The notes beneath the pieces were generated by a model. That model was not told the DNA's origin, did no database searches, and saw only the letters and a list, made by a program, of their open reading frames with translations. A stretch of DNA of 64,000 nt from an uncultured Prolixibacteraceae bacterium (GTDB lineage: Bacteria; Bacteroidota; Bacteroidia; Bacteroidales; FEN-979), in NCBI GenBank assembly GCA_964455285.1, contig CAYVVG010000001.1, forward strand, positions 64,960-128,959, given 5' to 3'. Positions 8,760 to 17,271 of the stretch are shown here, piece by piece. Made by a program: the position numbers and the translations under genes. The stretch's first letter is position 1; every line of letters begins with the position of its first letter.

Positions 8760-8775
8760 AGTACAGTCATATTTA

Positions 8776-8847
8776 ATGCAGTCAATGCAAACAATGCAGG
8801 CAACGCAAACAATGCAGGCAATGCAAACAATGCAGGCAATGCAAATA
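8776..8847 (+). repeat. tandem array, 8 x 9 nt, ATGCA(A/G)(A/G)CA family
   Basis: atgcagtca atgcaaaca atgcaggca acgcaaaca atgcaggca atgcaaaca atgcaggca atgcaaata. Almost fills the spacer between the isochorismatase stop (8848) and the parC start (8759). Confidence 0.95.
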
Positions 8848-9390
8848 TTATTTAACCAGGCGGGAGATCGCCTTAAAGGTCTCCCCTCCCGAATGCCTCA
8901 GCAGTTCAAAGAGGATGGCTTCGTAAGTGGTGATGTACGCTCCTTCGCGGCGCATCCGTTCAAGCGCGATCTTTTTATCGTTGGGTTTGCGCGAGGAGAT
9001 GCAGTCCTCCGCCACCACAGGGTGGTATCCGGCGTGCAGCAGGTCGATGACGGTCTGCAGTACGCATACATGGCTCTCGATTCCGGCGATGATCACCTGG
9101 TCGCGTCCCGACGACGCCAGCTCCATCATGAACTTCGGTTCGTCGCAGCAGCTGAAGGATGATTTCTCCACGCGCGGGATCCCCTCCAGCTTCCCGGCGA
9201 TAACTGCCACCGTCGGTCCGAGTCCCTTGACATACTGCTCGGTGACCAAAATGGGGATGCCAAGGACTTTCAACCCTTCGATCAGGATGGGAACATTCCG
9301 CGTCAGCATCTCATGCTCATGGATCGCGGGGAAGATCCGCTCCTGGAAGTCGATGATCACTGCGGCGGTTTTTTCTTTGATGAATCTCAT
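8848..9390 (-). CDS. isochorismatase-family cysteine hydrolase
   Basis: VIIDFQERIF..., catalytic Cys context IIAGIESHVCVLQTVIDLL. I moved the start to ATG 9390 (MRFIKEK...). The 13 extra codons in the track (to 9429) are encoded by the ATGCAGGCA repeat and look spurious. Confidence 0.8.
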   Translation of the reverse strand: MRFIKEKTAAVIIDFQERIFPAIHEHEMLTRNVPILIEGLKVLGIPILVTEQYVKGLGPTVAVIAGKLEGIPRVEKSSFSCCDEPKFMMELASSGRDQVIIAGIESHVCVLQTVIDLLHAGYHPVVAEDCISSRKPNDKKIALERMRREGAYITTYEAILFELLRHSGGETFKAISRLVK

Positions 9391-9402
9391 AACTTTGGTT
9401 TT

Positions 9403-9429
9403 CAATGCAGGCAATGCAGGCAGCATCAA
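9403..9429 (+). repeat. short copy of the ATGCARRCA nonamer array (2 perfect + 1 degenerate unit)
   Basis: caatgcagg caatgcagg cagcatcaa. Same orientation as the array at 8776-8847, so the isochorismatase gene is bracketed by direct copies. Confidence 0.8.
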
Positions 9430-9667: not shown

Positions 9668-10462
9668 TCAGGATTTATTGGCGATCACCAGCATCTCAAA
9701 ATCTTCGGTCGTCAGGCGGTCGTTCCTCGAAAAGGCACCGAGTTTTGCTCCAAATATCCCGATATCCGCAAATCCCAGCGACTTAAGCATCCAGATGATC
9801 TCGCTGGGGACGTAATAACGTTCATTGCAGTCGAGGGTTATCCGGTTCCCTTCATCGTCTTCGACCTCGGTGACATTGTGGTCGCGAAAGGTCATCAGGT
9901 CGAACGAATTGCTGCGATATGTTGCGCCATCAGGCGATTGTGAAGCACAGAACTTCTCCACGGAATGGTAGAGCGGGAAGAGTCCGTTGAGCGTGGTGAA
10001 GATGAATCTTCCGCCCGGCTTCAGTGACCGGGTCACGCCTGCCAGGATGGCGAAGTTCATCTCGTCGGTCTCCATCAGCGGGAACCCTCCCTCGCAGAGC
10101 ATGATGGCCGCGCCGAACGCTCCTTCGAAGGGCAGTGACCGTGCATCCAGTTTCCTGAAATCGATGGAGAGCCCCTCCCCTGCCGCTTTCTCCCGGGCCC
10201 TTGCAAGCTGCGATTCCGACAGGTCGACCCCGGTGACGGAATATCCCCGTTTCGTCAGCTCGATGGCGTGACGGCCGGTACCGCACCCGACATCGAGGAT
10301 GGTCACCGACCGGTCGCCCCGGAGTTCCTGATCGATAAAGTCGCACTCTCCCACCGTGCCATGAACGAACACCTCCCGGTCATATTTCCGGGCATAGTTT
10401 TCAAAGAGCGATTCGTACCATTGTTGATTTTTCATGATCTTACGGTTTGAAAATTCCATCAT
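9668..10462 (-). CDS. class I SAM-dependent methyltransferase
   Basis: 264 aa. Motif I ILDVGCGTGRHAIELTKRG, acidic loop VTGVDLS, motif post-II LKPGGRFIF. The start lies 1 nt after the stop of the radical SAM gene. Confidence 0.85.
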   Translation of the reverse strand: MMEFSNRKIMKNQQWYESLFENYARKYDREVFVHGTVGECDFIDQELRGDRSVTILDVGCGTGRHAIELTKRGYSVTGVDLSESQLARAREKAAGEGLSIDFRKLDARSLPFEGAFGAAIMLCEGGFPLMETDEMNFAILAGVTRSLKPGGRFIFTTLNGLFPLYHSVEKFCASQSPDGATYRSNSFDLMTFRDHNVTEVEDDEGNRITLDCNERYYVPSEIIWMLKSLGFADIGIFGAKLGAFSRNDRLTTEDFEMLVIANKS

Positions 10463-10463
10463 G

Positions 10464-11831
10464 TCAGGGGGTGAGGGCCCCGGGGAGGTACTTTTGCACG
10501 TTGAAATCGACCTCGACTCCGGATGGGTTTTGGAATATGCGGGATTTATGGGAAGGATTGTTCTTCAGACGGTACCCATTGTTCAGCGCAAAATAGAAAA
10601 CGGCCTGCTCGACACTCATCGTGATATTGGGCAACGCACGCCTGAGGATCGACATCTTCCCGTAAATCCTGTTTTTAATGCGATCGAAACTTTCAACCAT
10701 TTTTTCGGGTGTCATGTTTTTTGGAGAGACGATGATCTTCGTCGAATCAAATTTGCTCCAGTCATCCGTTAAAATCCTCCCCTCGCTTCTCAGCTTCTCA
10801 AAAACCGGTGTCCCGGGATAGGGTGTCATGGCACAAGCCTGGAAAAAGGCGGCTTTGGATTTTACCAGGAATTCATAACCCAGGTCAAAATCCTTCGGCG
10901 TGTCGGAATCCAGGCCAAATATGAGTGATGCCATGGTCATGATCCCGTTGCTCCGTAGCCTCCTGACGGCCAGAACATTCTCCTCAAGGGTTTTCAGCGA
11001 CTTCCGGTATGTATTGATCCCGACTTCTCCCATCGACTCGAAACCGATCAGCAACGCTTTGCAACCCGACTTATGAGCCAGTTTCATAAGTTCTTCATCC
11101 TTTGCAATATTAATGGAAGACTGACCAACCCAGCCCTTTTTCAACGGGATCATTTCCCTGAACAGGTCCGCCGCAAATTTCCTGTCAAATGTTATATTGT
11201 CATCGAGAAAAAAAAGGTAGTGTTGCGGACAGGACTCGGCTTCCGCCAGGATGTTTTTTATTTGCTTATGTCGCTGCCGGGTCCCGAAAAACCTGGAAAC
11301 AGTGCAGAAATCGCAGTTGTACGGGCACCCCCGGGTCGTCTCAATGGGTGCGACTGACAATTTCCCGGATGAACACTTGATCAGATCGCGTCGCGGAAAT
11401 ACGTGATCATGCAGATCGGGAAGTCTGTCGAGTTTGTAGAACTGACGTAGTTTGCGCTTTTCCGCGTCCGCCAGCACCTCTTCCCACAACCCTCCTTCCG
11501 CCTCACCGATCACCACGGCATCGCCGTACCGGATCGCTTCTTCGGGGAGGCAGGTAGCATGGATCCCACCAAAGACCACTGTCTTACCCCGCTTTTTGAA
11601 TTCGATGGCAATCTCATATCCGCGAATGCAGGTCTGGGTCATCAGGGTGATCCCGACAAGATCATGATCACCGTCAAAATTGACTTTGTCGCCATATACC
11701 TCTTCACAAATCGACACTTCGTGCTGGGCAGGTGTCATGCCCGCGATCAGCGAAAGGGTAAGTTGCGGGATGTCCATCGTATCCGGACGCTGCTCATTTT
11801 CAAGACAAGGCGCTACCAGCAGAATCTTCAT
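10464..11831 (-). CDS. B12-binding-domain radical SAM protein
   Basis: 455 aa. N-terminal cobalamin-binding-like Rossmann region (DLVGITLMTQT...VVFGGIHAT). Radical SAM cluster motif TTRGCPYNCDFCTV (CxxxCxxC). Confidence 0.88.
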   Translation of the reverse strand: MKILLVAPCLENEQRPDTMDIPQLTLSLIAGMTPAQHEVSICEEVYGDKVNFDGDHDLVGITLMTQTCIRGYEIAIEFKKRGKTVVFGGIHATCLPEEAIRYGDAVVIGEAEGGLWEEVLADAEKRKLRQFYKLDRLPDLHDHVFPRRDLIKCSSGKLSVAPIETTRGCPYNCDFCTVSRFFGTRQRHKQIKNILAEAESCPQHYLFFLDDNITFDRKFAADLFREMIPLKKGWVGQSSINIAKDEELMKLAHKSGCKALLIGFESMGEVGINTYRKSLKTLEENVLAVRRLRSNGIMTMASLIFGLDSDTPKDFDLGYEFLVKSKAAFFQACAMTPYPGTPVFEKLRSEGRILTDDWSKFDSTKIIVSPKNMTPEKMVESFDRIKNRIYGKMSILRRALPNITMSVEQAVFYFALNNGYRLKNNPSHKSRIFQNPSGVEVDFNVQKYLPGALTP

Positions 11832-11833
11832 GC

Positions 11834-13258
11834 CTATTGTTTTATGAGCGTTCCGGAAACGATGCGGTTATCTCCCCCAAAAATCCGGTAAACGTAAAAT
11901 CCCGGCTTCAAATGGCACAGGTTCAATGCGATATTTTCGCCGGAAAGGTCTGCCTCAAGGACAGTTGAACCCGCAAGGTCACAGATTTTAACAAGGAACC
12001 TTCCGGATATTCCTTGCAGCGTAACGATATCCTGAACAGGATTGGGATAGAAAGAGGGATAACATTCCGGATTTCGATCCCCCGGAACGCCGGTGTACAG
12101 GGCTGACTTCACATCCGCAACAGCGCCTTCGATGATGGTCAGGTTGTAGGGAATACTGGTGGGCGGAAGGGTGTACCATCCGTTGGCGGAACCGCCCCAA
12201 CCGAAATTGAAATGGTAGAACTCATCGGTATTGTATCCGTCAACGACTACGTTATGACCGCCGGAACCTCCCTCGACCAGCAGCCCGAGTTGCACGGGCA
12301 ACGCGGCTTTGATGTTTTCCGCGATCAGGGTGTTCAGCGTAGTGTCGTCGGGATACACCAGCCTCGACTCTTCAAAGCCGAACCGCTGCCAGGCCATGAT
12401 CGCCTGTTCGAGCCCGAATGTGCCCGACACGGAGGAACTGTAGACCTGGCGAGCCGCCACGCCGCAGGCAAAGGTAAGGGCCGCTTTCAAAGGATTGTTC
12501 AGTCCGTATTCCCACGAAACCTCCAGGCTGTCGAGCCAGTAATTCAGCGTATCGAAACAGGGAAAATCTCTGCTCTGGTAATCGTCGTCGATCCAGTAAC
12601 TGTTACCGGAGCCATAACTGTGGTAGTAGTCATCGGCATCGCCGAAACGGGTGCCGTTGATCCCGCGGTGGTAGTTGATCATCTGGGCCATGGCCGTGGC
12701 GGGACATCCGGCCACGCTCCGGTTGCCTGTATTCAGGTCGACAGGACACATATTGTTGTATGGAGCCGACTGGGTCCAGTTTGTCTCGAGCCATCCCCCG
12801 GTATAGGTAGTCCCCTCGGGCGGCCATTGCTCGAATGAGGGCGACCGGCCGCCACCCGACAGGAACTCCCTCCATTGCCGGCCTATCCGGGTTCGCTCAC
12901 CTGCAGACAGGTAACGGTAACCTTCGGCCCGGAGTTGCAGGTCATGCACCACAATTTCTTTCCATTCCCGGGCCTGCAGGGTCGAAAGATCCATGCTCTG
13001 ATCTGCCGACCAGGCATAAACCGGGGATACAGCGGTGGTGCCGGCCGTTACCACGAATCCCGCAGGGCGGAACAGGAAAAGATGCCCGGCCACTTCATTG
13101 TTTTCCTTCACTAACGGTATGTCGGCAACGATTTCCATTCGTTGCGAGTGATGGAACATAAACATCTCCGCCGCATGTCTCAGCGAATCGGCAGGGATCT
13201 CCCTTGCGACAGAAGACAGACCTGACAGCAGGCAGAGCGTAAAGAATAATCGTCTCAT
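11834..13258 (-). CDS. C10-family (streptopain/SpeB-like) cysteine peptidase with T9SS C-terminal sorting domain
   Basis: 474 aa. Signal peptide MRRLFFTLCLLSGLSSVA; catalytic Cys context VAGCPATAMAQMINYH; His context GGSGGHNVVVDGY...FYHFNFGWGG. C-terminal ~80 aa resemble the Por secretion tail (FYPNPVQDIVTLQ...YVYRIF...LIKQ). Confidence 0.85.
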   Translation of the reverse strand: MRRLFFTLCLLSGLSSVAREIPADSLRHAAEMFMFHHSQRMEIVADIPLVKENNEVAGHLFLFRPAGFVVTAGTTAVSPVYAWSADQSMDLSTLQAREWKEIVVHDLQLRAEGYRYLSAGERTRIGRQWREFLSGGGRSPSFEQWPPEGTTYTGGWLETNWTQSAPYNNMCPVDLNTGNRSVAGCPATAMAQMINYHRGINGTRFGDADDYYHSYGSGNSYWIDDDYQSRDFPCFDTLNYWLDSLEVSWEYGLNNPLKAALTFACGVAARQVYSSSVSGTFGLEQAIMAWQRFGFEESRLVYPDDTTLNTLIAENIKAALPVQLGLLVEGGSGGHNVVVDGYNTDEFYHFNFGWGGSANGWYTLPPTSIPYNLTIIEGAVADVKSALYTGVPGDRNPECYPSFYPNPVQDIVTLQGISGRFLVKICDLAGSTVLEADLSGENIALNLCHLKPGFYVYRIFGGDNRIVSGTLIKQ

Positions 13259-13285
13259 ATAATAGAATATTGATCAGGATATTTT

Positions 13286-16200
13286 TCAAACAGTCCCGGA
13301 CTCGTCAACGGCAGTATTTTCGTCATAACTTTCCATGATCTCGTTGAGATCGAACATTTTTCCTGCGTTCTGTTCGACCAGTTTTTTATATTGAGCCGGA
13401 TTGATTGCCCGGATGACCGATAACAATTTTGCCAGTCCTGGTTTTTGTTCTCCGATATCTTCATCTCCGAAAGAATCACTTAATTTCTGAATGATTGATT
13501 TGTCGACCACCAGGAAATAGGCGATCACGGGTTTGATGCGATTGATCACTTCGAGGAGGTTGGCAAACCCGATGAAATACCGGGGGGAAATGGCGAACGT
13601 CCTCGGCATGAGATACTGCAGCCGTTTGGTAATCCTGATCGCCATCCCCATATCAACCTGAGATATCACGTCTAAAAATTTTGCAGTAGGTTGAAAATCA
13701 TCAGGATAAACAAAGTATTGCGTCGCATACTGGATGATGACTGCTTCTCTCGAAGAGATTTCCCGGATCAAGTCCTCCGACCGGATATCCTCTCCCATCT
13801 CCCCTGATTTTTGGATCAAATAGCCCAGCAAATGCGTAAATGTCCGTATGTGGATCCGATGGTGTATAGGCTGTCGTTTCAACAATTCCAACCAGTCAAT
13901 CTTCCTGATAACCTCTTTCTGTTTCTCCTCCCCGAGACTCGAAACAAGCGAACAAAAGGAGGCAGTCTCCTTGTTCGTGATCAGCCGGGAATAAGAAAAG
14001 ATATCCTCGAGTTTGAAATAGGCCGACAGTCTCTCTTTGCATGGCCCCAGGGCGTGGATGAAATTCAACAGCATCGGCAACCGGGGTGCCCCGGGTTGAA
14101 TACAGGTTTGAGCCACCTTTTCCCAGTTCAGTCGTTCGAGGAGTTCCCTTTTACCCGGATGAGAACCGAATGCGTTCAGCAGCCCGGCTACCTGGTCAAG
14201 TTGCTCCGCCTGAGCCATGTTCATCTTTTCAGCCAGTTGGTCATAGGCCAGTTTGTTCAGCAGGTCTTGCGTTTTCCTGCCCCCTCCGAGGGCAATGATG
14301 AAGTCAGCCACCTGGTTGAAATGGCCCACCTCCGCATGCCTTATTCTCCCTGCCAATCTATCCAGGTTGAGTTTTTCGATGAAGACTGTTCTTTCAGGAT
14401 GACCGGAGAGTGAATTCAACAGGGTAGCCACCCTGGATAACTGGTTGAGCTCTACAGCGTTAGCCGCCTTTGCCAGCTTCTCCAGTTCCAGGGCAACAAT
14501 GAATTTTCTTCCCTGTGCATGATAACCGATCGCCCCGATGAGATAGGCGATTGAATGAAATACGACCACCTCATAGGTTTTGATCGATTTCGCCAGTCGC
14601 TCGACATCTAAATGGCTGATAAAAAAATCTTTGTCTTTCGTCGATTGCAATGCATTGATAAAATCGGCCAGCTGAGTGAATTGTGATTCTCTTGCTTCAT
14701 TCGCATGCAGGGCCATTTTGGCGAGGTCGAGAAGGGAAAGAAACCTGTGTTTCTCCTTGGAAACACCCAGGGCGTTGATGACACTGGAAATCTGCGAAAA
14801 CTGTCCCACCGCGGCTTCACTCGCGTGACGGGCCATTTTGCCGACATCCAGCTTCTCAATGAAGCTTGCCCGGTTTCGCCCGAAGATGTGGATAAAATCC
14901 TGAATTGCTTTGAATTTCGATGGTGGTGCTTCTGAAGCCTGAACAGCAACACATTCAAAATAGGCCGGGGTCAGCAGGAGATTGTAAAACGCCGGGTGGA
15001 ATCGCTTCAGCGTTGTCAGCAGAAACGGGTATACGTGTAACTTTTCAACCACAAGGCTTGTGAGAAAACCGTTCACCCATACCGTGTTTTCCTGTAAAAG
15101 CAATGCCTGGCATTTCCGTATCGCATTAAAAAAGATCCCGAAATAGATGTGATCGGCATAATTCGTTGTCAGCAGATTTTGGAATGCCTGAAGGATCATC
15201 CTGATCATGAACTCGTCGCTGATCTGGTCAGTGATCGATTTTACGATGGCCTGTGACATCCTGTAATGCGGTGCCTTCAGGAAAACATTGTCCAGTTCTT
15301 TTCTGTGTTCCAGGATCAGCAATCTTCCGCTATCCTGGGAGGCAAGGTCGGTGATCAACCGGGACGGCGTATAAGATTCCATCTTTTTTTGCAAAAGTGG
15401 CGGTCCGGCACCGACCAACAATTCGATAAACTCAACCTGGCTGATTGCTTTATCCCCGGTAATGATATTCCTCGCTGAAAACAGGAAAATGGCCAGTATC
15501 AACAGATCCCGCTCATTTCGACGGGATATCTTTCCAAGTAATTGTGCAATCCTTTCTTCACCGGCTGAGGCGATAAAATTGAAATGCCATGGATCATGGA
15601 TCTTGCCATTTTCTTTCATCCTGATTGCCTCCTCCAGGCCTTTGCACCTTGCCGTGATCACCTCCCTGACCAGCGGGTTTTCAGAACGATAAAAGTCCCT
15701 CATCAGCCTGGGATAAAATTCATCAAAGGCAATACCGACAGCGTCAGGATTATCCTGCGGGCCTATTTCCAGGTAGTTGGTATTGATCCAGATGACCTTT
15801 CCGTTTTTATTCTGGCGGGCCTCTTCCTCAAACTCATACCTGAGTGCATTTTCAAACGGCAGGTTGTGGGCGTCATCTACCAGTATGATCTTATGCCGGT
15901 TACCTTTCAGAGCATCCAGTTCATCAAGCACCTGGGGTATCTCCTTTGTCTCCTTTATCCGATCAATAACCAGCCGGTAGCCCCTGCATTTGCTCCAGGG
16001 AATTTTGATGGATAACCGGTAGGAAAACCCCAGTCTCCTCCGGTATCGGAAAATAGCGTGATAAGCCAGCAGGGTTTTACCGTCGCCGGGCTTACCATTC
16101 TCCCACACAAATCTTTTTTCGTAAAGAGCCCGATAGATTTTGTCAATTTCCACGCTGACAGGGGCGACATGAACAAACCAGGGTTGTGATTTCTCAGAAT

Positions 16201-16528
16201 TCAATATTCCGTCCACGCCTTTCCTGAGGTTTTCCTTTGAAGGCTTTCCAAATTTCAGCGGTTCGAAATAGTGCTTGTCAGGTTTTTTAAGCGCGATATA
16301 CAACCGGCTTAGCAGGTAGGAAATCAGTAAAATGAGAATGAAAATTCCCCCGTAAGCGATAGCAGCGGCTGACCTGCTTTTCGGATCGAGCGATAATTCC
16401 TTATTGATCAGAGGGATCAAAACGGACATGAATCCCTCTTTGAACAGGGCGGTCAGTGCAATGAAAATACTCAATGGCACCAGCGCGGCCCAACGTTTCA
16501 GGCCCAGTCGTTTGGTTTTTCTTTTCAT
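13286..16528 (-). CDS. membrane-anchored P-loop (STAND/AAA-like) NTPase with C-terminal 40-residue helical repeat array; function unknown
   Basis: 1080 aa. Two N-terminal TM helices (about aa 13-29 and 55-78). Walker A GKPGDGKT (aa 145-152, nt 16073-16096). Walker B IILVDDAH (aa 214-221). A helical region follows, then about 10 repeats in strict 40-aa register (aa 516-915). Markedly lower G+C than its neighbours. Confidence 0.7.
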   Translation of the reverse strand: MKRKTKRLGLKRWAALVPLSIFIALTALFKEGFMSVLIPLINKELSLDPKSRSAAAIAYGGIFILILLISYLLSRLYIALKKPDKHYFEPLKFGKPSKENLRKGVDGILNSEKSQPWFVHVAPVSVEIDKIYRALYEKRFVWENGKPGDGKTLLAYHAIFRYRRRLGFSYRLSIKIPWSKCRGYRLVIDRIKETKEIPQVLDELDALKGNRHKIILVDDAHNLPFENALRYEFEEEARQNKNGKVIWINTNYLEIGPQDNPDAVGIAFDEFYPRLMRDFYRSENPLVREVITARCKGLEEAIRMKENGKIHDPWHFNFIASAGEERIAQLLGKISRRNERDLLILAIFLFSARNIITGDKAISQVEFIELLVGAGPPLLQKKMESYTPSRLITDLASQDSGRLLILEHRKELDNVFLKAPHYRMSQAIVKSITDQISDEFMIRMILQAFQNLLTTNYADHIYFGIFFNAIRKCQALLLQENTVWVNGFLTSLVVEKLHVYPFLLTTLKRFHPAFYNLLLTPAYFECVAVQASEAPPSKFKAIQDFIHIFGRNRASFIEKLDVGKMARHASEAAVGQFSQISSVINALGVSKEKHRFLSLLDLAKMALHANEARESQFTQLADFINALQSTKDKDFFISHLDVERLAKSIKTYEVVVFHSIAYLIGAIGYHAQGRKFIVALELEKLAKAANAVELNQLSRVATLLNSLSGHPERTVFIEKLNLDRLAGRIRHAEVGHFNQVADFIIALGGGRKTQDLLNKLAYDQLAEKMNMAQAEQLDQVAGLLNAFGSHPGKRELLERLNWEKVAQTCIQPGAPRLPMLLNFIHALGPCKERLSAYFKLEDIFSYSRLITNKETASFCSLVSSLGEEKQKEVIRKIDWLELLKRQPIHHRIHIRTFTHLLGYLIQKSGEMGEDIRSEDLIREISSREAVIIQYATQYFVYPDDFQPTAKFLDVISQVDMGMAIRITKRLQYLMPRTFAISPRYFIGFANLLEVINRIKPVIAYFLVVDKSIIQKLSDSFGDEDIGEQKPGLAKLLSVIRAINPAQYKKLVEQNAGKMFDLNEIMESYDENTAVDESGTV
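13784..14983 (-). repeat. protein-level repeat array: ~10 x 40 aa (7 clear units at nt 14024-14863)
   Basis: Units start at aa 556, 596, 636, 676, 716, 756 and 796, exactly 40 apart. Consensus: FIxKLDxxKLAxxxxxAExxQFxQVAxFINALGxxxxxxx. Degenerate units lie on both sides. Nucleotide copies are diverged, so this is not a recent duplication. Confidence 0.85.
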
Positions 16529-17271
16529 TCTATCGAATACTCCACGCTCACCACCACCCGCACTTTCTTGTACAGGTCGGAGTTGTTCCCTCCAAATCCA
16601 CCTTCGGTCTGCCCGGCAAGGAAATCGTCGCGGTCGATGATGGAAAAGAGTCCCTGGGTGGCCTTCTTCAGCCCGCCCAGTTTCGTGCCACTCTCCTTGG
16701 CGAACTGCACCGCAGCTTCACGGGCATTCCGGGTGGCTTCGGTCAGCATGGCCGGCTTGATGGTGTTCAGTTTCGTGAAGACAAACTTCACGGTTCCTTC
16801 GTAGGGATTGTTGCTGATGGCCACTCCCGCCTTGAGCAACTCGTCGGTCATCCTGCTCACTGCCTGCACCTGGTCAACATGGTCGCTGCGGACCTGGATC
16901 ACCTTCTCGATGATGTAACGGAATGCGTCAACCGTATTATTATTGTATTCCTGGGCCCTTTTGTCGGTGACGATCAGATCCTTCTGAATGATCTCTTCCT
17001 CTCTGATCCCGTTCTTCAGCAGGAAAGCGACCACCTTGTTCCTTGCGTCGTCGATGGCGCGGCTGCCTACGATGAGATCGTTGCCTGCTACCCGGGTCTT
17101 GATGGTCCAGACGGCAAAGTCGGCTTTCACCTCCCTTTCGGAGAATCCTTTTACCGAAACCGAACGGTCTTCCTTCCGGAACCGTTCCAGCGAACGGCCC
17201 AGGATCAGTGCACCCAGCGCCAAACCGGCCATGAGGGCCAGCGACAGCATGAGGGTCTTTTTCATTTCCAT
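16525..17271 (-). CDS. SIMPL-domain (DUF541, YggE/BP26-like) protein with N-terminal signal/anchor
   Basis: 248 aa. Hydrophobic N-terminus MEMKKTLMLSLALMAGLALGALILG. The body resembles the SIMPL family pattern (VSVKGFSEREVKADFAVWTI...). Its stop TGA overlaps the ATG of the NTPase gene (ATGA, 16525-16528). Confidence 0.65.
   Translation of the reverse strand: MEMKKTLMLSLALMAGLALGALILGRSLERFRKEDRSVSVKGFSEREVKADFAVWTIKTRVAGNDLIVGSRAIDDARNKVVAFLLKNGIREEEIIQKDLIVTDKRAQEYNNNTVDAFRYIIEKVIQVRSDHVDQVQAVSRMTDELLKAGVAISNNPYEGTVKFVFTKLNTIKPAMLTEATRNAREAAVQFAKESGTKLGGLKKATQGLFSIIDRDDFLAGQTEGGFGGNNSDLYKKVRVVVSVEYSIE

Follow-up and report, generated by a model that had tools for sequence, protein, structure and literature searches.

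An nSTAND3-type NTPase with a predicted membrane hairpin and an ARM-like repeat sensor from an uncultured Prolixibacteraceae bacterium: a candidate single-gene defence protein

Sensors of the STAND type (signal transduction ATPases that have numerous domains) and of NLR-like type (NLR, nucleotide-binding protein with leucine-rich repeats) monitor much of the core phage proteome. To our knowledge, each bacterial STAND sensor characterised so far is soluble and bears an enzyme as its effector (a nuclease, a SIR2 NADase or a protease). STAND effectors have also been described as being 'in some cases ... pore-forming membrane proteins' (PMC13001434), and catalogues list transmembrane (TM) modules both for Avs7-sensor relatives and for bNACHT proteins (PMC13581612; 10.1101/2022.07.19.500537). 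TM-bearing STAND and NACHT proteins are already a known kind of protein, and our literature search returned no mechanistic study of a TM-bearing STAND. Here we describe a gene at positions 13286..16528 (minus strand) of a 64,000-nucleotide stretch of DNA from an uncultured Prolixibacteraceae bacterium (positions 64,960 to 128,959 of contig CAYVVG010000001.1, GenBank assembly GCA_964455285.1). This whole stretch is hereafter called the window, and the 1080-residue gene product the window protein. We are highly confident that the product combines a STAND NTPase of the nSTAND3 type with a two-TM hairpin at its N-terminus and an ARM-like repeat sensor, and it is quite probably a conflict or defence protein. 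In our overall reading, to which we assign a probability of roughly 55% with partial credit for variants of the output, it is a single-gene, horizontally acquired, Avs-like defence STAND of the inner membrane with the membrane hairpin as its effector. What is new is an unnamed family without a defence-database model, a repeat-type sensor without a Pfam model, and a constitutive two-TM hairpin coupled at a fixed spacing to an nSTAND3 switch.

Described systems and the window protein

The closest comparison is with Avs5 (AVAST type 5; EfAvs5, PDB entry 9jap), likewise a single-gene tripartite protein with an nSTAND3 NTPase and a C-terminal alpha-helical repeat sensor. The Avs5 NTPase has been annotated as nSTAND3, and Avs5 is reported to act at one defined place in the cell, namely early infection vesicles (bioRxiv 10.1101/2025.07.08.663546). 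The two proteins differ at both ends. Avs5 is soluble, carries a SIR2 NADase effector and has sensors of the TPR, Sel1 or PPR type, whereas the window protein begins with two TM helices, which form a hairpin in the effector position, and has no SIR2 match in Pfam. The sensor of its family is built from 40-residue ARM-like units.

Membrane-integrated single-polypeptide P-loop NTPases are also known: in Tmn (YobI family) and KAP proteins, repeats or arms sense phage proteins (PMC13001434). Their NTPases belong to other clades and their TM helices lie inside the P-loop domain or are differently arranged around it, whereas in the window protein both helices lie ahead of an NTPase that contains no hydrophobic interruption. 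The window protein has no Pfam match to KAP at E <= 0.1 and no PADLOC match to Tmn. An insertion between Walker A and Walker B, a trait of YobI/Tmn, was looked for in the window protein and is absent.

In ZAR1-type resistosomes and other oligomerisation-gated effectors, the oligomer gathers N-terminal helices to perforate a membrane. The likeness of the window protein to these coiled-coil NLR (CC-NLR) resistosomes of plants, to the TM effectors of CBASS, Pycsar and type III CRISPR systems, and to the SLATT 2TM domains discussed in PMC7159879 is one of functional analogy only. The membrane modules are not homologous, and the helices of the window protein are predicted to be constitutively inserted, not released on activation.

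Architecture of the protein and its family

The open reading frame (ORF) is intact and complete, with a guanine-plus-cytosine (GC) content of 0.476 and full-length homologs of 35-41% identity. Its ATG start is the most upstream one in the frame and the first after the preceding stop, and the MKRKTKR N-terminus is kept in homologs. All feature coordinates given in this section are on the minus strand. A first-pass annotation, made from the letters of the window, had described a 1080-residue protein with two N-terminal TM helices. The Kyte-Doolittle profile bears this out, with exactly two hydrophobic segments in the entire protein (peaks at residues 15-41 and 51-81).

The uncharged runs at residues 13-29 and 53-74 delimit TM helix 1 (WAALVPLSIFIALTALF, 16442..16492) and TM helix 2 (16307..16372), the latter giving the strongest hydropathy peak (2.39). 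Helix 1 is preceded by a polybasic motif (MKRKTKRLGLKR, residues 1-12, 16493..16528), predicted to be cytoplasmic, with seven Lys/Arg, and nothing acidic, among the first 14 positions. The helices are joined by a short stretch (residues 30-52, 16373..16441) predicted to be an extracytoplasmic or interfacial loop. The two-segment N-terminal pattern is common to all ten of ten close homologs and to nearly all core-family members. Hairpin metrics were taken from 23 of 32 examined core members, namely those with two delimitable uncharged runs. The run of helix 1 has a median length of 20 residues (range 15-27) and that of helix 2 of 21.5 residues (16-25), with a connecting loop of 15.5 residues (1-30); helix 2 ends at a nearly constant distance before Walker A, with a median of 70 residues (57-81).

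The first-pass annotation had weighed its TM pair against a cleaved signal peptide plus a buried helix, and the pair is upheld: in several core members, the loop between the helices has only 1-5 residues, a length that suits a helical hairpin but is hard to reconcile with a cleaved signal peptide and a periplasmic segment after it. Helix 1 is thus unlikely to be a cleaved signal peptide. The loop is also too short to hold an external sensor domain. Because of the polybasic N-terminus and the positive-inside rule, both ends of the protein and the entire NTPase-sensor body are predicted to be cytoplasmic. The motif M-K-x-K-T-K/R-R is kept even in members that are ~25% identical overall, next to TM helices that are poorly conserved in sequence. 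Candidate roles of residues 1-12 are lipid binding, autoinhibition or partner binding.

A juxtamembrane segment (residues 83-137, 16118..16282; motifs YFE..F..P and FVHVAP....E) precedes the nucleotide-binding domain (NBD). Eight of its residues (F88, F93, K113, F118, H120, A122, P123 and E127) are invariant among close homologs. It is modelled as packed on the NTPase, with a block-mean predicted local distance difference test score (pLDDT) of ~83-90 over most of its length, and it aligns by hhalign with 'ACPxLPEV' of effector-bearing relatives.

The NBD (residues 138-267, 15728..16117) has a beta-alpha-beta pattern in the model and contains Walker A, GKPGDGKT (residues 145-152, 16073-16096), with K151 as the P-loop lysine; Walker B, IILVDDAH (residues 214-221, 15866-15889); and a sensor-1-like motif, WINTNY (residues 247-252). 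The Walker motifs had been noted as lying about 65 residues apart, in agreement with the 67 residues from K151 to D218. The NBD is followed by helical domain 1 (residues 268-338, 15515..15727), with the signature DPWHFNF at residues 312-318, and by a winged-helix-like domain of helices and a beta-hairpin (residues 339-436, 15221..15514), in which His421 lies in an APH motif. An all-helical linker domain (residues 437-523, 14960..15220; block-mean pLDDT mostly 83-93) completes the switch region. In the alignment of 39 family members, where the mean column identity is 18%, G145, G148, G150, K151 and W314 are invariant, and 90% or more of the members keep D218, D219, A220, W247, T250, F318, A320 and H421. 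Conservation of the Walker motifs, W314 and H421 in so divergent an alignment indicates that these features are not chance. His421 aligns with an invariant histidine of the effector-bearing relatives, and its position may be analogous to that of the MHD histidine of NB-ARC proteins.

The nSTAND3 model (PF20720) matched 36 of the 39 members at E <= 0.01 (best E 1.2e-10); in the window protein, the match covers residues 129-189. The nSTAND5 model matched 17 members and a generic AAA model 12, and the NACHT-related NPHP3_N model weakly matched 15, behind nSTAND3 among the matches listed. By these profile matches, nSTAND3 membership is clear at the family level and sub-threshold for the window protein itself. 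The window protein matched no NACHT, NB-ARC or MalT-type Pfam profile at E <= 0.1. The first-pass annotation had likewise recognised no NACHT or NB-ARC signature; its proposal of a distinct P-loop clade does not stand, since the group is the already named nSTAND3. An NCBIfam scan of the window protein gave no match, and a PADLOC scan gave weak P-loop-level matches only (Nhi, E 0.004; AbiO, E 0.012).

In an AlphaFold2 model of residues 80-556 (mean pLDDT 80.3, predicted template-modelling score 0.75), a nucleotide-binding domain of beta-alpha-beta pattern is followed by a helical domain, then by a winged-helix-like domain that includes a beta-hairpin, and lastly by another helical domain. The top PDB match of this model in Foldseek was EfAvs5 (SIR2-STAND, 9jap_A) with an E of 2e-5 and a probability of 1.0, followed by ORC/Cdc6, CED-4, Apaf-1 and AVAST5 filaments, with Avs4 lower down. 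The placement of the NTPase, which had been left to structure prediction, comes out as an nSTAND3-type STAND and not as a housekeeping family. In sequence searches against PDB chains, neither the window protein nor the relative P0138 had a match, and the family profile gave P-loop-level matches only (CED-4 at E 0.068).

The repeat array occupies residues 524-831 (14036..14959). A hidden Markov model (HMM) of the repeat consensus, LIEKLDWEKLAKxANxAEVxQFxQVADFINALGxxK, found seven clear 40-residue units at residues 557-831 (per-unit E 1e-9 to 5e-15) and one degenerate unit at residues 524-553. The array therefore spans ~310 residues, shorter than the ~400 of the first estimate, and the tail (residues 832-1080) grows from ~165 to ~250 residues. 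The model of residues 505-1080 (mean pLDDT 88.8) is fully helical, with three helices per 40-residue unit and a pLDDT of ~90-95 in the units. The tail is modelled as further degenerate helical repeats. Its C-terminal helical domain of degenerate ARM-like helices (residues 832-1066, 13331..14035) is for the most part modelled at high confidence; the protein ends in ~14 disordered residues, of which the last nine have a pLDDT below 50. A Foldseek search with the sensor half gave generic ARM/HEAT solenoids only (beta-catenin, importins, CIP2A and axonemal ARM proteins; best E 3.5e-4), so that no ligand can be deduced. No Pfam repeat model matches the repeats of the window protein; short matches to Pfam Xp10_P7 and MRP-S27 within them were rejected as chance.

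Where at least four units were scored, a member has between 4 and 11 repeats. Repeats of the same protein are in many members 50-86% identical on average (up to 100%), compared with ~40% between proteins, which indicates recent duplication or homogenisation of units. The sensor half also diverges faster than the NTPase half, with identities to the window protein of 21-34% and 30-50%, respectively. Tandem sensor units up to 97-100% identical within one protein occur in P0011, P0014, P0016, P0020, P0023 and others, and such near-identical repeats resemble the highly internally conserved repeats of fungal NLRs. A tape-measure-like metagenomic protein of 954 residues (P0093) matches the family profile (E 1.3e-14) through its own ~40-residue repeats, which carry 'IDWxKLG', similar to 'LDWEKLA' of the sensor; homology and convergence are both possible.

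The switch region is shared with proteins that carry other effectors. An hhalign comparison of the family NTPase region with those of seven nSTAND3/5 proteins (P0133, P0140, P0148, P0131, P0138, P0147 and P0111) gave a probability of 99.8% and an E of 6e-28 over 383 columns. The match spans the pre-P-loop motif, Walker A and B, the PW.F.F...GW.R signature of helical domain 1 (common to the SIR2-like-, Cap4- and HNH-fused relatives), the winged-helix histidine and the helical linker. Of the N-termini checked, that of P0133 is a CBASS Cap4-type PDDEXK endonuclease (PADLOC E 1e-57), that of P0148 is a PtuB-like HNH nuclease, and those of P0131 and P0147 are weak SIR2-like matches. These Cap4-, HNH- and SIR2-like-fused relatives share the homologous NTPase-helical-winged-helix module and differ from the window protein in their soluble N-terminal domains and other C-terminal regions; they too are uncharacterised. 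The weaker family-profile matches with other N-terminal modules have no TM segments, compared with two in the core family. The TM hairpin occupies the position of the nuclease, HNH or SIR2-like N-terminal modules of these relatives.

Conversely, the repeat-plus-tail module recurs behind a different subtype of nSTAND NTPase in P0073 (HEPN_Swt1) and P0077 (HD and HEPN). These two proteins have the same 38-40-residue repeat sensor and C-terminal helical domain (profile matches of sensor plus tail at E 1e-40 and 9e-36, respectively), with RNase-type HEPN/HD effectors in place of the TM hairpin. The same module is also found behind a three-TM N-terminus in P0056. Such shuffling of effector, switch and sensor, as read from these domain orders, is a hallmark of STAND conflict systems. 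The locus encoding P0073 (L017 7438-10464) also encodes an integrase and an HsdR-like helicase besides TBP and CDC48-like proteins, a gene content that points to an archaeon as the host and to spread of the sensor module across domains.

Distribution and genomic context

Members of the family are extremely few and scattered. When 5.8 billion clusters were searched by word index, just ten proteins were returned (24-46% identity), all unnamed or 'hypothetical', and the only public name of any member is 'hypothetical protein'. An exhaustive profile search of 1.84 billion representatives gave 169 clusters at E <= 1e-3, 75 of them at E <= 1e-30, many being fragments. In a survey of one genome per species, six loci were found in 185,579 species: five in metagenome-assembled genomes (MAGs) and one distant locus in Streptomyces. 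Four of the MAG loci belong to Bacteroidota taxa (Sphingobacteriales, Flavobacteriaceae, Prolixibacteraceae and Ferruginibacter) and one to an unclassified uncultured bacterium. A scan of viral contigs found no relative and gave no evidence of a phage-borne gene.

The family gene carries a compositional signature of horizontal transfer, its GC content being 5-20 points under that of the flanking genes at most loci. The gene and flank values are 0.476 and 0.50-0.58 in the window, 0.357 and 0.51-0.59 at L001, 0.306 and 0.41-0.48 at L010, 0.389 and mostly 0.44-0.58 at L013, and 0.545 and 0.59-0.70 at L014 (Streptomyces). It is also a solo gene: an all-against-all comparison of 102 neighbouring ORFs at 11 loci revealed no conserved neighbour, with weak TPR-TPR similarities only.

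In the window, the gene belongs to a co-directional array on the minus strand that includes a SIMPL/DUF541 gene (16525-17271), its stop and the STAND start sharing an ATGA overlap; a C10 peptidase with a type IX secretion system (T9SS) sorting tail (11834-13258); a B12-binding radical S-adenosylmethionine (SAM) enzyme (10464-11831); and a SAM methyltransferase (9668-10462). The other gaps in the array are 27, 2 and 1 nt. The arrangement was found at no other family locus, and SIMPL/DUF541, the C10 peptidase and the radical SAM enzyme were each rejected as a conserved partner by the 11-locus comparison. The methyltransferase matches the methyltransferase part of the PADLOC mad2 (MADS) model (E 1e-22), and the radical SAM enzyme weakly matches the candidate system PDC-M51A (E 4e-7); both matches probably reflect generic domain similarity. 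Scans for promoter and terminator consensus sequences near the gene gave counts close to the shuffle expectation, with a consensus that does not cover Bacteroidota promoters. Elsewhere in the window, an 18-bp tandem repeat, AATGCAGGCAATGCAAAC, is present in 3.9 copies with 94% matches at 8775-8845, in the short gap between the start of a ParC/GyrA-like gene and the end of the ORF 8848-9429. A related 9-mer is present in 2.2 copies at 9403-9422.

Six of 12 independent family loci have restriction-modification (RM), PIN toxin, IS200, baeRF, prophage-like or integrase/IS110 neighbours, a sample too small for statistics. Among these neighbours are a PIN toxin, an IS200-type transposase and a baeRF gene. 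In a Flavobacteriaceae MAG (L010 10809-13535), a complete MmeI-type IIG RM enzyme (PADLOC 1253 bits) lies 103 nt after the family gene. Two loci of distant members are also of this kind: that of P0035 (L015) lies in a prophage-like element with a large terminase, a primase-polymerase, an integrase, an NmeDI-like endonuclease and a phage DAM-like methyltransferase, and that of P0017 (L016) in an island that encodes an IS110 transposase along with two tyrosine recombinases.

Proposed mechanism, alternatives and significance

The window protein has the tripartite Avs layout in a single gene. The first-pass annotation had proposed an effector-NTPase-sensor plan of the STAND/Avs type, and this is supported by the nSTAND3 matches, the top fold match to EfAvs5, the solenoid sensor and the position of the hairpin in the effector slot. 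Our assignment to conflict or defence is based on this architecture together with the effector-swapped relatives, the rarity of the family, the signature of horizontal transfer and the mobile or defence neighbourhoods. In the proposed mechanism, the polybasic N-terminus and the two-helix hairpin would anchor the protein to the inner membrane while its NTPase-sensor body stays cytoplasmic, and the resting NTPase would be locked with ADP. The ARM-like solenoid of 38-40-residue three-helix repeats would bind a foreign protein, probably of a phage or another mobile element, and binding would permit nucleotide exchange and ATP-dependent oligomerisation. Oligomerisation would then bring together the TM hairpins, set at a fixed ~70 residues from the P-loop, to form a pore or lesion, and collapse of the membrane potential would arrest or kill the infected cell (abortive infection). 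The putative role as a membrane-disrupting abortive-infection effector is drawn from the position of the hairpin and from analogy, by which it is plausible that the hairpin itself is the killing device, via STAND-driven pore assembly.

We tentatively extend this reading to an unnumbered antiviral STAND family that would act as a 'resistosome with a pre-inserted channel': phage proteins would be sensed by rapidly turning-over ARM-like repeats, and ATP-dependent oligomerisation would let the embedded hairpins form an ion-conducting pore. The sensor of such a protein may be specialised for membrane-proximal infection events, for example those involving ejection or tape-measure-type proteins.

Several observations weigh against the defence reading. 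The window protein scores 20.9 bits (E 3e-4) with nSTAND3, under the gathering threshold of 27.2 bits, and the Foldseek TM-scores are low (0.30), owing to the multi-domain geometry. Sequence likeness to EfAvs5 is marginal (E 0.011 with a profile of the relatives, none with the window protein), from which it follows that the window protein is not Avs5 itself. No Avs/AVAST or other PADLOC defence model was matched beyond P-loop-level noise, and PADLOC recognised no defence island in the window. The repeats of the window protein are the most diverged of the family (mean identity 30%) and thus give no sign of recent diversification in this copy. The tight co-directional array (9668-17271) could mean a physiological operon. 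The TM helices match no SLATT or other pore-domain model, either in the Pfam scan of the window protein or among the 25 families most matched by the 39 members; given this and their poor conservation, the hairpin could be a mere anchor.

The last point leads to the alternative that survives best, which we nevertheless regard as unlikely: an Avs-like defence sensor whose hairpin serves for localisation only, keeping it at the inner membrane, the site at which phage DNA enters and ejection proteins or membrane proteins of the phage turn up. The output would then come from elsewhere, by runaway ATP hydrolysis, target sequestration or a host factor recruited in trans. Besides the poor conservation of the TM sequences and their failure to match a pore-forming model, it is consistent with the cytoplasmic polybasic N-terminus and the juxtamembrane segment being the conserved parts, with the reported action of Avs5 at the early infection vesicles and with the use of the host factor EF-Tu by Avs7. 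It fits less well with the lack of a conserved partner gene at the 11 loci. The same N-terminal slot of homologous NTPase modules holds bona fide toxic effectors, and the fixed spacing of ~70 residues between helix 2 and the P-loop suggests mechanical coupling over a loose tether. Both points likewise weigh against a mere anchor.

Many STANDs of bacteria, MalT and AfsR among them, have regulatory roles, and the window protein might be a non-immune, membrane-anchored STAND signalling or scaffold ATPase, for example in envelope or secretion regulation, co-expressed with SIMPL/DUF541 and the T9SS-secreted C10 peptidase. We consider this improbable. The ATGA overlap with the SIMPL gene, the tight co-directional array and the absence of a PADLOC defence island nearby would agree with such a role. 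However, these neighbours are conserved at no other locus, the GC offset (0.476 against 0.50-0.58) recurs at most other loci, and the distribution is too sparse and patchy to sit easily with it. A DNA-binding or enzymatic output domain is lacking, and the relatives bear nuclease, HEPN and SIR2-like effectors. Finally, an ORC/Cdc6- or FtsH-like AAA+ membrane-tethered remodeller with the repeats as substrate adaptor is very improbable: AAA+ ORC/Cdc6 proteins, FtsH, the Ycf2-FtsHi motor and proteasomal ATPases also score against the predicted NTPase structure (Foldseek E 3e-4 to 1e-2) and Pfam AAA matches weakly (E 0.088), but the top fold match is a STAND (Avs5) with CED-4, Apaf-1 and Avs4 also present, nSTAND3 is matched by three times as many members as generic AAA (36 versus 12 of 39), the winged-helix domain with its conserved histidine and the C-terminal solenoid follow the STAND layout, and there is neither a protease nor a second AAA ring.

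The family is undetected by current defence-annotation models, and the window protein adds a defence candidate from Bacteroidota, a phylum under-represented among tested systems. Useful handles are K151, D218/D219, H421, the hairpin and its fixed spacing from the P-loop. The family also offers natural effector-swapped relatives (Cap4, HNH, SIR2-like and HEPN) and a new repeat-type sensor with rapid unit turnover in some members. As a single-gene defence candidate with a membrane hairpin as its putative effector, it would provide a compact model for how NTPase-driven oligomerisation is coupled to damage of a bacterial membrane, the same question that is posed by the CC-NLR resistosomes of plants.

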